Assembly (NCBI RefSeq): GCF_057098645.1
Contig: NZ_CM169472.1
Direction: 5' to 3' (one strand)
Length of the DNA: 64,000 bases
In this document: positions 41,769-46,048 of the stretch, piece after piece
Position numbering within the stretch: the stretch's first letter is position 1
How the letters are laid out: every line of letters starts with the position of its first letter
Translations under genes and position numbers: made by a program
Notes under the pieces: generated by a model
The model's database searches: none
The model's input: the letters and a program-made list of their open reading frames with translations, nothing else
What the model was told of the DNA's origin: nothing

Positions 41769-41994
41769 CCGTGACGAAACTGCTCAAAGGCGAGGTATAA
41801 AATGAGTTTTTTTGATGAGTTGAAAACCTCTCTGGAAGAGACTGTCGAGATTAGAAAGAACCTGTACGGGTGACCCGCTACGAAATTGCGGATGCTAAGG
41901 CTATTCGTGAGCAACTTCATACTCCAACCGACCGGTTGCGTAGCCAGAATGCAATCAAATCTGACAGTTCGCTTCGGCGCGCGCTTTGGTGTAT

Positions 41995-42186
41995 TTACCG
42001 GAGTAAATCAGCGTGCCGTGGAAAATTATGCGCAGCGCTTCTGCTGATTTGCGTACCTTCGCAGATGATAAGTCCAGCACTGGCGCGCTGCGCGTAATAC
42101 TCCGCCATCATGTCAATCGCAACGTCAACCGCACCGGCGCGGGAACGCGTCATCGGTGGCAGTACAATACGGTTTATTAATGGCAA
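41995..42186 (-). pseudogene. Truncated Old Yellow Enzyme-family flavin oxidoreductase (N-terminal ~60 codons only)
   Basis: PLINRIVLPPMTRSRA...MAEYYAQRASAGLIICEGTQIS matches the conserved OYE/NemA N-terminus (PLTR.R, MAEYY.QRAS.GLII.E.TQIS). The frame stops after 63 codons. Confidence 0.45.
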
Positions 42187-42234
42187 CGCATTCAGCGCAT
42201 ATTTAGCAAATTACGTAATGGGTTCCTCGCGCGA

Positions 42235-42447
42235 TTATTTATACAGTTCGGCACTCATGGTGACGGTATTGCCCATGCGAGCGCTGGTAATTTTGTATTC
42301 AGAGGCGTTCATCTCTTTCGCTTTCTGCGCAATAACCGCTTCAGCGGAATCCAGTGTTGTACCGGTTGCTGTCACGCTTTGCGCCGATGCGTTAAACGCC
42401 GCGACAGAGAAAAGAGAAGCCGTAAAAATTGCGATGATCGTTTTCAT
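42235..42447 (-). CDS. DUF1471 (YhcN/BhsA/McbA-family) small periplasmic stress protein
   Basis: 70 aa from MKTIIAIFTASLFSVAAFNASA (signal peptide). Mature part ends TSA..GN....A.LYK, typical of the family. The ORF-track start at 42615 is an extension. Confidence 0.5.
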   Translation of the reverse strand: MKTIIAIFTASLFSVAAFNASAQSVTATGTTLDSAEAVIAQKAKEMNASEYKITSARMGNTVTMSAELYK

Positions 42448-42604
42448 GTTTATATTCCAGAGTGTCTTAATTGTTTGGCGTTTATTAACGCGATGGGGAG
42501 AGAATACGCCTGCTGCCTGATAACATAAATGATACAAATGGCAATAGACTATTCTGTTTTTGTTAATAATCAGACGCCGGACGTTCCGACGCCTGTCGAT
42601 CGCA

Positions 42605-43021
42605 TCAGGCAACAAAGTTGTCCTTTAGCGCCTTGAGACCATCCCGATAGATGCCGGTAAACAGCGCCTCGGCCTCTTCGTTCGTCACATTCACCGGGGT
42701 GAATTCACCGAACCATTCCACACGGGAAACCTGGCTGTCGGCGGTTTCATGAACGGTAATGGTGGAGAGGTAATCCACCACCGGGAACGGAGCCTGAATA
42801 ATGGAATAGGTATAACTGCGTTGACGGTTATCAAACGCTTCCAGACGTTCAACCACAGTGCCGCCGTCAGAGGTTGTCAGCGAACGAACGCGACCGCCTT
42901 CTGTCACTACGCTTTTCGGGATGAACGGCAGCCAGTCTGGCAGCGCATCAAAGCCGCCCATCAATTGCCATACGGCGTCGGCAGAAGCCGGAATTTCGAT
43001 CGATACAGTTGTTTTAGCCAT
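42605..43021 (-). CDS. SRPBCC (Bet v1-like / polyketide-cyclase-like) ligand-binding protein
   Basis: 138 aa. The pattern A.AD.VWQL...FD.LP.WLP looks SRPBCC-like to me. Family assignment is by inspection only. Confidence 0.5.
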   Translation of the reverse strand: MAKTTVSIEIPASADAVWQLMGGFDALPDWLPFIPKSVVTEGGRVRSLTTSDGGTVVERLEAFDNRQRSYTYSIIQAPFPVVDYLSTITVHETADSQVSRVEWFGEFTPVNVTNEEAEALFTGIYRDGLKALKDNFVA

Positions 43022-43046
43022 GATAATTTTCTCTTAATTTATAGGG

Positions 43047-43844: not shown

Positions 43845-43863
43845 CGTTTTCTCACCAGGTTGA

Positions 43864-44874
43864 TTAACGGGTCGGCAGCGGAGCGTTTTCCGCAACCAGA
43901 TTTTGACGGCACATTTCTGCCCAGAATTCAGCCGGAACAGGCGCATTCAGTGCAGCCAGATCTTCTGCCATACGGCCAGGACGGCTGGAGCCAGGAATAA
44001 CCGCTGCAACGGCCGGGTTTGCCAGCGCGAACTGCAGCGCAGCCGCTTTAACGTTCACATTGAAACGTGTGGCAATGGCGTTAATTTGCGCCACTTTCTG
44101 CTGGATGGCCGCAGAGGCTTTCTGATATTCAAAGTGCTCGCCGCCTGCCAGTACGCCAGAGCTGTATGGACCGCCCACAACGATATCCACGTTCTGTTCC
44201 AGTGCTTCTGGCATCAGGCGTTGCAGCGCACGTTCGTGATCCAGCAGGGAATAACGCCCCGCCAGCAGGAACGCATCCGGCTTCGGTTCGTCCAGCGCCA
44301 GCGTCAGTTCGCAAGGTTCGACGCGGTTCACACCCAGTCCCCAGGCTTTAATCACACCTTCGTCACGCAAACGCGTCAGCGCACGAAATGCACCGGTACG
44401 GGCAATGTTGAACTGCTCCAGCCAGCTGTCACCGTAGAAGTCCTGCGCCGGGTCGTGGATCCAGACAATGTCCAGACGGTCTGTTTTCAGGCGTTTCAGG
44501 CTGTCTTCAATCGATCGCAGCGTGGCGTCAGCAGAGTAGTCATTCAGAATTTTGTTTTTCAGGCCGTGTTCGAACAGGCCACCTTTTTCACCGAAATCCC
44601 GTTTTGCCGGATCTTCCATTTCGTCCAGCATGATGCGACCGACTTTGCTACTCAGAACGTATTCATCGCGTGGATACTGAGACAGCGCTTCACCCATGCG
44701 GATTTCAGAAAGGCCAGAGCCGTACAGCGGCGCGGTATCAAAGTAACGCACACCCAGGTTCCAGGCTTCGCTCACGGTGGCGTGGGCCTCTTCTTCCGGA
44801 ATGGCACGGAACATGTTGCCAAGTGGTGCGCCGCCTAAGCCAATTTTGCCGGGGAGTAAATTTTTAATGCTCAT
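43864..44874 (-). CDS. Aldo/keto reductase
   Basis: 336 aa with FDTAPLYG and AKR-typical spacing. SD GAGGA. Confidence 0.8.
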   Translation of the reverse strand: MSIKNLLPGKIGLGGAPLGNMFRAIPEEEAHATVSEAWNLGVRYFDTAPLYGSGLSEIRMGEALSQYPRDEYVLSSKVGRIMLDEMEDPAKRDFGEKGGLFEHGLKNKILNDYSADATLRSIEDSLKRLKTDRLDIVWIHDPAQDFYGDSWLEQFNIARTGAFRALTRLRDEGVIKAWGLGVNRVEPCELTLALDEPKPDAFLLAGRYSLLDHERALQRLMPEALEQNVDIVVGGPYSSGVLAGGEHFEYQKASAAIQQKVAQINAIATRFNVNVKAAALQFALANPAVAAVIPGSSRPGRMAEDLAALNAPVPAEFWAEMCRQNLVAENAPLPTR

Positions 44875-44927
44875 AAGATGTCCTCAATTATTCGGTTTGG
44901 GTTAGGGCGTTTTTTTGCTATCGCCCT

Positions 44928-44951
44928 GTGACGTGGATCACAATACCTTGC
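44928..44951. promoter_or_regulatory. Candidate LysR-type operator dyad in the divergent promoter
   Basis: TCACAA-N12-TTGTGA inverted repeat between the divergent AKR and LysR genes. Confidence 0.35.
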
Positions 44952-45007
44952 GAGGTTGTGACTTGATAGGACATAATTCGTCTGACTTAAGTCCTTTGAG
45001 GTCTAAC

Positions 45008-45895
45008 ATGATTGATTTACGCCAACTGAAGTACTTCGTGGTGGTCGCAGAAGAAGAGCACGTGGGACGCGCAGCCGAGCGATTACATATCTCGCAATCG
45101 CCGCTGAGCCGCCAGATTGCACAACTGGAAGAACGACTGGGGCTGACGCTGTTTGAGCGTAATCAGCAGCGCATTCGCCTGACCGCTGATGGACAGACAT
45201 TCCTTGCCGAAACACGTTCGTTGCTGACACACGCCAACCGCCTGGAGTCGTTAGGCAAACGCCTGGGACGGGGGGAAGATGGGGGCTTGTGTATTGGCTA
45301 TATCGAAAACGCCATGCATTCCGGTGTACTTTCTACGGCGTTACGTACGTTACGTGTATCGCGTCCGAATGTGCATATCGCTCTTTACAGCCAACCACCG
45401 GCTACCCAGATTGAAGGCCTGCGCCAGCGCAGTCTCGATTTTTCTCTGGTCGATACGCCGCCCGCCGACAGCGAGCAGGATCTGGAATATATTCAGGTTC
45501 TGGATGATCGAATGTTGTTGGCCTTACCGCAAAATCATCCTCTGGCGCAGGAGGAAAACCTTGTCGCGTCACAACTTGGCGATGAGCAGTGGATTGCGGT
45601 GATTCATAACGACGATGCGCATTCTCGCGATCATTTTGTCGCCGCCTGTGTTAACGCCGGGTTTAATCCTGATATTCGCCTGGAAGCGGGTGAACCCCTC
45701 ACGGCATTAGGTCTGGTCGCTGCGGGATTAGGTCTGGCCTTAATTCAACATAGTCTGCGTCATAATGCGCCGGAAGGGGTGGTATTACGTGAATTGCCGT
45801 GGATGAATTATTCAACGCAATTATGGGCAGCCTGGCATAAAGCCAACCAACGTCCGCTGGTTTCCCATTTCCGCCAGATCCTGCGCGGTGAATAA
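45008..45895 (+). CDS. LysR-family transcriptional regulator
   Basis: 295 aa from MIDLRQLKYFVVVAEEEHVGRAAERLHISQSPLSRQI (LysR HTH). Divergent from the AKR-SDR gene set. Confidence 0.85.
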   Translation: MIDLRQLKYFVVVAEEEHVGRAAERLHISQSPLSRQIAQLEERLGLTLFERNQQRIRLTADGQTFLAETRSLLTHANRLESLGKRLGRGEDGGLCIGYIENAMHSGVLSTALRTLRVSRPNVHIALYSQPPATQIEGLRQRSLDFSLVDTPPADSEQDLEYIQVLDDRMLLALPQNHPLAQEENLVASQLGDEQWIAVIHNDDAHSRDHFVAACVNAGFNPDIRLEAGEPLTALGLVAAGLGLALIQHSLRHNAPEGVVLRELPWMNYSTQLWAAWHKANQRPLVSHFRQILRGE

Positions 45896-46048
45896 AACGT
45901 TAAGCGGGAACCATGAGTTCCCGCTTGATTTGAGATGTCAGTCCGCATCTGAGCTAATACACTTAAAGAGAATTCTGCCTTTTCGGGGACTCATCATTTA
46001 ACTAATGCCGGATGCGATGCTGGCGCGCCGCACCCGGCATTTTACGCA

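Follow-up and report, generated by a model that had tools for sequence, protein, structure and literature searches.

A conserved cassette of a LysR-type regulator and predicted oxidoreductases inside the disrupted nadS gene of Escherichia coli

Results

The nadR-ettA spacer carries an uncharacterised operon under selection

In a 64-kb window of the Escherichia coli chromosome (the whole stretch of DNA under analysis, 100% identical to chromosome NZ_CP028379.1 of E. coli O145 str. RM9872), the spacer between nadR and ettA carries an operon that is real, selected and uncharacterised. It encodes an aldo-keto reductase (AKR), a short-chain dehydrogenase/reductase (SDR), a ligand-binding-fold protein of the SRPBCC family and a small DUF1471 protein, and it is divergent from a gene for a LysR-type transcriptional regulator. 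The operon is of a familiar kind, a regulator with NAD(P)H oxidoreductases; it carries generic annotations already and occurs widely beyond E. coli. What sets it apart most is the pairing of AKR with SRPBCC, which is conserved, and its position within the antitoxin gene nadS. The window copy is a reduced version of a 4.8-kb six-gene block (LysR / AKR-SDR-SRPBCC-DUF1471-OYE, the last gene encoding an Old Yellow Enzyme, OYE) exchanged as a unit among Enterobacterales.

Positions 41769-46048 are exactly the spacer from the nadR stop (41768) to the ettA stop (46049), in the gene order radA-nadR-[interval]-ettA-slt. A first-pass annotation had placed here a LysR gene divergent from the same-strand set AKR, SDR, SRPBCC and DUF1471; all five genes are present and intact, and the family assignments agree with the records of the Prokaryotic Genome Annotation Pipeline (PGAP) and with profile and structure matches. 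The truncated OYE noticed at the nadR side is likewise there, as the remnant of a NemA-like enzyme. The genes are as follows.

43864..44874, minus strand: AKR, 336 aa, first gene of the operon (PGAP "aldo/keto reductase"; PF00248 on all close homologs)
43047..43844, minus strand: classical SDR, 265 aa (PGAP; 230 SDR models match)
42605..43021, minus strand: SRPBCC / Polyketide_cyc2 ligand-binding-fold protein, 138 aa (PF10604 on orthologs)
42235..42447, minus strand: small secreted protein of the DUF1471 (YhcN/BhsA/RclB) family, 70 aa (PGAP; PF07338 on the Klebsiella pneumoniae ortholog)
45008..45895, plus strand: LysR-type transcriptional regulator, 295 aa (PF00126 and PF03466 on orthologs)
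41972..42216, minus strand: NemA-like OYE pseudogene (NF007899 match; intact 365-aa orthologs in E. coli E69, locus L016, and Yokenella, locus L020)

The operon genes are separated by 19 bp (AKR/SDR), 25 bp (SDR/SRPBCC) and 157 bp (SRPBCC/DUF1471). The catalytic tetrad of the AKR is complete, with D46 (FDTAP), Y51 (LYG), K77 (SSKVG) and H140 (WIHD) aligning with those of L-galactose dehydrogenase (L-GalDH). Its best match in the PDB (E = 1.7e-29) is split into two partial stretches, its closest characterised relatives being plant L-galactose dehydrogenases (E from 1e-29 to 1e-19), and its homologs carry the JGI name D-threo-aldose 1-dehydrogenase. On NCBIfam the best score was 69.7 bits against a cut-off of 550, with no equivalog model approached, and the AKR did not qualify as a close relative or equivalog of D-threo-aldose or L-galactose 1-dehydrogenases.

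The SDR displays the motifs GSTSGIG (14), VGRK (37-40), NNLG (88), the Ser in VSSESG (139) and YGVTK (154). Basic residues after the second beta strand are typical of NADP(H)-using SDRs, and the VGRK motif fits this rule, so that the enzyme may use NADP(H). Among characterised structures, those of L-sorbose reductase and 3-hydroxybutyrate dehydrogenases are nearest to the SDR. A close match is the Acinetobacter baumannii ortholog (8G9M; E = 8.5e-138), which was crystallised and published with its natural substrate unknown (PMC10889901).

The SRPBCC protein is 61% identical to a Bacillus cereus protein and matches the B. cereus "XoxI" structure 3CNW (E = 4e-52) and 3F08 (E = 1e-50), both structural-genomics orphans, and it is distantly similar to PYR/PYL receptors. 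The DUF1471 protein has a signal-peptide-like N-terminus, and since its NCBIfam matches to RclB, BhsA and YhcN all fall below cut-off, none of the named family members is its equivalog. The LysR protein was matched by 54 models of LysR-type regulators, none at its own cut-off; the identification with a known regulator was rejected, the AlsR, PRK09986, GltC and HcaR models all scoring far below their cut-offs. Its best structure match, at only 131 bits, is 7W06, an itaconate sensor (PMC9636186). No inducer can be inferred from these matches.

The OYE remnant is wider than the annotated pseudogene and has lost its start codon (ATG to ACG), acquired TAA at codon 2, suffered a 686-bp internal deletion at 42042/42043 and been truncated at its 3′ end at 41972. 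No full-length OYE is left at this locus, and the intact orthologs elsewhere reach 396.4 bits against a NemA subfamily cut-off of 403.

The cassette is conserved as a unit across distant bacteria

To place the operon among other bacteria we scanned one genome per species, which gave 569 relatives; the synteny counts refer to the best 80 of these 569 species-level loci. A divergent LysR ortholog (62-100% identity) was seen in 76 of 78 loci with room for it, an SDR gene followed the AKR gene in 68/73, and SRPBCC lay downstream in 71/73. This arrangement, LysR divergent from AKR-SDR-SRPBCC, covers Enterobacterales, Acinetobacter and Pseudomonas, with DUF1471 following only in Enterobacterales. 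Across phyla the AKR keeps 71-78% identity and the SRPBCC protein 55-63%; AKR homologs in Pseudomonas, Duganella, Janthinobacterium, Streptomyces and Gottfriedia are 72-78% identical.

In Streptomyces and Bacilli the AKR and SRPBCC genes are 3-25 bp apart. The Streptomyces unit is LysR / AKR-SRPBCC, and an adjacent HxlR-AKR pair also occurs there; B. cereus has HxlR / AKR-SRPBCC with no SDR linked, Gottfriedia has OYE, HxlR and AKR-SRPBCC, and Lysinibacillus has AKR-SRPBCC alone. From this lineage distribution it follows that the invariant core, shared by Proteobacteria, Actinobacteria and Bacilli, is AKR plus SRPBCC with a dedicated regulator. To this core Gammaproteobacteria have added the SDR, and Enterobacterales DUF1471 and OYE.

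The flanks of the cassette are unrelated among Enterobacter, Pseudomonas and Klebsiella, and clustering of the flanking genes revealed synteny at the genus level only, with no partner recurring across genera. The five-gene unit of K. pneumoniae has the gab operon on one side and crl-frsA-gpt on the other; it is near-core in that species, since 5,589 collection blocks are indexed for its SRPBCC protein. Two copies of the block, about 94-98% identical, lie away from nadR-ettA: in E. coli E69 (CP089930.1) it follows pitA-yhiN and includes an intact gene for a 365-aa OYE, and in Escherichia whittamii (locus L017), where the OYE gene carries another deletion, its neighbours are glyQS and ghrB. The block common to these two is 4.8 kb long and sharply bounded, with the hairpin past the LysR gene at one end and the OYE stop at the other. 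Intact OYE genes were found in E69, Yokenella and Providencia, and Yokenella has the intact six-gene form. These findings extend the first-pass annotation, which had described the genes in E. coli: the cassette is widespread, it is near-core in K. pneumoniae, it sits in E. coli inside a broken antitoxin gene, and two of its members are lineage-specific additions.

Three further observations concern individual loci. The far flank in E69 codes for a C-terminal portion, 679 aa long, of a ProA/Hhe-like anti-phage helicase. In about 46 Pseudomonas loci of the fluorescens group, and in locus L011, the cassette is followed by a convergent two-component system (HAMP/HisKA kinase and OmpR-type regulator). 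A 1,397-bp contig of a Collinsella sp. metagenome-assembled genome (locus L018) has an AKR 99% identical to that of E. coli, most likely a binning contamination by Escherichia DNA.

The five genes are under purifying selection

Substitution rates were compared within E. coli and between genera. The ratio of nonsynonymous to synonymous rates (dN/dS) was 0.00-0.18 and mostly below 0.1 for all five genes, with no internal stops, and 0.00-0.13 within E. coli alone; the five non-OYE genes are under strong purifying selection. The dS of the island within E. coli was 0.03-0.16, mostly somewhat below that of nadR and ettA (0.10-0.22).

The control region has a conserved dyad beside the LysR start

Motif search, sequence inspection and cross-species alignment of the region between the AKR and LysR genes revealed the following elements.

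44875..45007, no strand: divergent control region
44968-44995: dyad AGGAC-N18-GTCCT, beside the LysR start
44941-44946, minus strand: -10-like hexamer TATTGT
44927-44942: perfect CRP-core palindrome TGTGA-N6-TCACA
44904-44927: stem-loop GGGCG/CGCCC

Each motif is unique in the 64 kb, against a chance expectation of 0.06-0.09 (0.09 for the CRP core). The dyad was kept in 72/77 loci, from Escherichia to Acinetobacter and Pseudomonas, and its position and conservation make it the likely LysR recognition site. A -10-like TAnnnT hexamer upstream of the AKR gene was kept in all groups aligned.

The exact CRP core was found in 9 of the loci. It is kept in Escherichia, Enterobacter, Trabulsiella, Yokenella, Yersinia, Raoultella and Klebsiella and missing in Serratia, Providencia, Acinetobacter and Pseudomonas. 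As the core overlaps the conserved hexamer, it would lie near +1 and not at an activating position such as one near -41.5 or -61.5. A CRP-activated catabolic operon with a class II site was consequently downgraded as a candidate, given this overlap and the confinement of the core to one enterobacterial subgroup.

A stem-loop of 5-6 bp stands at a constant distance past the hexamer, with stems that vary between genera (GGGCG/CGCCC, GGGCA/TGCCC, CAGGA/TCCTG, GGCAG/CTGCC, GGGGC/GCCCC). It may be a leader hairpin. MAFFT with RNAalifold gave no consensus structure for it because the loop lengths differ, and an Rfam scan of 41500-46300 at E <= 0.1 returned no RNA element.

The island lies within the nadS antitoxin gene

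The first-pass annotation had called for a comparison of the nadR-ettA interval across genomes. By blastn this comparison narrowed the foreign DNA to about 4.04 kb (41917-45958); outside it, the interval consists of relE/parE-nadS remnants and an element resembling repetitive extragenic palindromic (REP) sequences. The features at and around the boundaries are listed here.

40536..41768, plus strand: nadR, core flank (PGAP annotation of the identical record and open reading frame)
41772..41916, plus strand: left remnant, where the final ~30 bp of a relE/parE-type toxin gene join onto the 5′ portion of nadS (blastn against the intact toxin-antitoxin locus L003 and K-12, locus L002)
41917..41971, no strand: junction segment of 55 bp and unknown origin, common to all E. 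coli island variants
45902..45926, no strand: hairpin with an 11-bp stem, terminator-like on the minus strand, just past the LysR stop
45959..45992, plus strand: nadS 3′ remnant, right side of the disrupted antitoxin gene (blastn against the intact toxin-antitoxin locus)
about 46007-46040: REP-like palindrome (GCCGGATGCG...CGCACCCGGCAT) that separates the nadS 3′ remnant from the ettA stop
46049..47716, minus strand: ettA, core flank (open reading frame and PGAP)

The left remnant retains the first 115 bp of nadS, with its ATG at 41802 and a 10-bp deletion. For reference, the NadS protein of the intact locus scores 182.6 bits on the NadS equivalog model NF041265. Because the two ends of nadS flank it on both sides, the ~4.04-kb foreign DNA sits in the antitoxin gene, where it replaces about 112 bp. 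The island is thus embedded in a relE/parE-nadS type II toxin-antitoxin locus of which both nadS ends are still recognisable. This locus is not intact here, about 30 bp of the toxin gene being left and nadS being split and frameshifted; with the toxin gene deleted and nadS split, no functional toxin-antitoxin system remains in the window. The hairpin at 45902-45926 marks the right end of the block common to other Escherichia. Extra REP copies were seen between nadR and ettA in K-12 and in the "empty" state.

We found no integrase or transposase genes among the open reading frames of the interval, no tRNA in 38000-50000, no direct or inverted repeats bounding the island and no close plasmid copy of it; distant copies occur on megaplasmids or chromids of Ewingella, Burkholderia, Streptomyces and Bacillus. 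A classical mobile genomic island was rejected on these grounds.

The nadR-ettA spacer exists in four states in E. coli

The island alone (41917-45958) was used to search 5,426 complete E. coli genomes. It was present in 482 (8.9%), each time as a single chromosomal copy of 97.8-100% identity located between nadR and ettA and never on a plasmid, in agreement with the first-pass annotation, which had called it accessory in E. coli. The spacer of K-12 MG1655 is 307 bp long and holds an nadS pseudogene only, and the five genes are therefore not present there. Combining the island query with one for the toxin-antitoxin module distinguished four states of the site (example loci L002, L003 and L004).

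Intact relE/parE-type toxin and NadS module: 674 genomes
Island inside nadS: 482 genomes
nadS 5′ fragment only (K-12 type): about 3,806 genomes
No nadS (only REP sequence seen): about 464 genomes

K-12 and the window share the same deletion junction between nadR and the toxin tail. Expression of the K-12 nadS fragment was reported in a 2025 paper (PMC12350097).

Other E. coli carry additional cargo at 41972-41976, immediately to the right of the junction segment (L005 1861-3441 and L007 1861-2586). It takes the form either of a TauE/SafE-family permease with a 123-aa helix-turn-helix protein resembling the ModE N-terminus, or of a GNAT gene. The TauE form retains 58 extra OYE bases contiguous with the intact gene, which makes the window form its 1.58-kb deletion derivative. 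The TauE/SafE, ModE-like and GNAT genes of these longer variants were checked as possible members of the unit and judged unrelated cargo. Among inspected carriers the five open reading frames were intact in all but L006, and the product names under the 60 listed matches were consistent. In L006 an IS1A (901-1598) lies between nadR and the nadS fragment, and a deletion fuses the SDR and SRPBCC genes; in another carrier, H2 (NZ_CM143892.1), an IS1397-family element lies inside the region.

Discussion

A proposed role in reduction of lipophilic carbonyls

The reading that we prefer, and hold tentatively at somewhat short of an even chance, is that the cassette would reduce, with NADPH and under LysR control, a reactive aldehyde, ketone or enone of lipophilic character, with the SRPBCC protein as ligand-handling partner. 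The LysR protein would bind the AGGAC-N18-GTCCT dyad beside its own start and, on sensing a small-molecule inducer, activate the AKR operon promoter with its -10-like TATTGT. The AKR and the NADP-type SDR would then reduce the carbonyl groups of the substrate while the SRPBCC protein might bind or present the hydrophobic substrate or product. Where intact, the OYE would reduce the conjugated C=C bond, and the secreted DUF1471 protein may add an envelope stress function.

We favour an electrophile or carbonyl because the ancestral block contained a NemA-like OYE, because HxlR-type regulators adjoin AKR-SRPBCC in B. cereus and Gottfriedia, because the DUF1471 relatives RclB, BhsA and YhcN are stress proteins, and because the SDR has an NADP-type motif and no catabolic partner genes are linked. 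The HxlR family is that of YodB, CatR and HypR, sensors of quinones, aldehydes and oxidants. The first-pass annotation had likewise suggested a module that detoxifies reactive carbonyls or electrophiles, and the comparative support for this reading is circumstantial.

Several findings weigh against this proposal. The nearest characterised relatives of the AKR, like its JGI label, are oxidative sugar enzymes, and its sequence does not discriminate between the nicotinamide cofactors. The SDR resembles L-sorbose reductase and 3-hydroxybutyrate dehydrogenases. A perfect CRP core, as present in the control region, is a feature seen more often in catabolic operons. Separate losses of the OYE number at least 3, and enone reduction therefore cannot be central. 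HxlR and OYE neighbourhoods occur in a few distant loci only. No functional study of the cassette was found in the literature, the "XoxI" papers found being unrelated; the first-pass annotation had seen here an uncharacterised functional unit, and this description stands, the published SDR ortholog structure being itself without an assigned substrate.

Alternative explanations

The findings on the AKR, the SDR and the CRP core are the basis of the strongest alternative, a sugar-like catabolic or salvage module, which we regard as rather unlikely. Here the AKR would oxidise an aldose (L-fucose, L-galactose, D-arabinose) or other lactol to the lactone with NAD(P)+, the SDR would interconvert a keto/hydroxy intermediate, LysR would sense the substrate and CRP would give catabolite control. 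The best characterised AKR relatives are indeed L-galactose dehydrogenases, in keeping with the JGI label; the SDR is similar to L-sorbose reductase and 3-hydroxybutyrate dehydrogenases (also PMC10889901), and the perfect TGTGA-N6-TCACA is kept in seven enterobacterial genera. However, a linked transporter, lactonase, dehydratase, kinase or aldolase was found in none of more than 80 loci, the likeness of the AKR to L-GalDH is low and far from any equivalog cut-off, the SDR motif is of the NADP type and the SRPBCC fold binds hydrophobic ligands. The CRP core, moreover, overlaps the -10-like hexamer and is missing from the four genera named above.

A narrower idea centred on the invariant core, which we consider unlikely, is that AKR and SRPBCC form an obligate two-protein system in which the SRPBCC protein would capture or present a hydrophobic toxic carbonyl. 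Handling of one specific, universally met metabolite would then explain the identity of about 55-78% that is kept from E. coli to Bacillus and Streptomyces. If true, it would define an unrecognised, widely distributed detoxification or signal-quenching pathway with a LysR-type sensor (HxlR-type in Bacilli).

We consider improbable a tailoring or signal module in which the SRPBCC protein would be a catalyst (cyclase, dehydratase or isomerase, as are other Polyketide_cyc2 members) or ligand receptor and the AKR and SDR ketoreductases. Their substrate would be a lipophilic metabolite, either endogenous or passed between species, for instance a lactone, a diketone or a steroid-like signal. The AKR and SRPBCC genes being an invariant, nearly contiguous pair in Streptomyces and Bacilli, the unusually high cross-phylum identity of their products and the distant likeness of SRPBCC to PYR/PYL receptors are consistent with such a role, but no biosynthetic genes (polyketide synthase, nonribosomal peptide synthetase or acyl-CoA ligase) were linked at any inspected locus and the cassette is found in varied housekeeping contexts.

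Finally, that the E. coli block is a decaying leftover without a current role is very improbable. In favour of this reading, the OYE is dead, the left end has undergone serial deletions (as seen from the longer TauE plus ModE-like and GNAT variants), one genome has the SDR-SRPBCC deletion with IS1 and another the IS1397 insertion, and the block is absent from 91% of genomes, but against this stand the five open reading frames intact in every inspected carrier except L006, the low dN/dS within E. coli, the conserved regulatory motifs and an ortholog that is near-core in K. pneumoniae.

Significance

Proof of the proposed carbonyl reduction, or of any other function, would give a role to a cassette that occurs in at least 569 species representatives, among them Acinetobacter, Serratia, Yersinia, many Pseudomonas and the Bacillus cereus group; two of its proteins already have orphan crystal structures. 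In E. coli it provides a well-delimited case of an accessory segment, not mobile, that has taken the place of a toxin-antitoxin locus and is now being reduced stepwise. In O145:H28 and other carrier lineages the cassette may be a strain-variable tolerance determinant for a class of reactive compounds.

Comparison with known systems

Compared to nemRA-gloA (NemR, the OYE NemA and glyoxalase I), the cassette shares, as proposed here, a dedicated sensor over NAD(P)H-dependent electrophile reduction, and its ancestral block had a NemA-like OYE. In contrast to that system, its regulator is LysR-type and not TetR-type, it combines AKR, SDR and SRPBCC with no glyoxalase, and the OYE of the window is dead. 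A regulator divergent from an operon that includes an AKR is also seen in yqhC / yqhD-dkgA, where the operon encodes aldehyde reductases; there, however, YqhC is AraC-type, YqhD is an iron-type alcohol dehydrogenase and SRPBCC or DUF1471 partners are absent, and the cassette AKR is only distantly related to DkgA (28 bits). The rclR / rclABC system similarly places a small periplasmic DUF1471 protein (RclB) beside a cytoplasmic oxidoreductase under a dedicated regulator, but on the RclB model, with its cut-off of 100, the cassette DUF1471 protein reaches only 27.7 bits, and both the enzymes and the regulator family differ.

At the level of single proteins, the plant L-galactose and bacterial D-threo-aldose 1-dehydrogenases are the best characterised AKR relatives, with the catalytic D-Y-K-H residues aligned, although the match is weak and split in two stretches and no sugar-pathway genes are linked to the cassette. 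The B. cereus "XoxI" protein (3CNW/3F08) and the A. baumannii SDR (8G9M) are close homologs of the cassette SRPBCC and SDR; B. cereus shares the AKR-SRPBCC pair, whereas its adjacent regulator is HxlR-type and its locus has no linked SDR.

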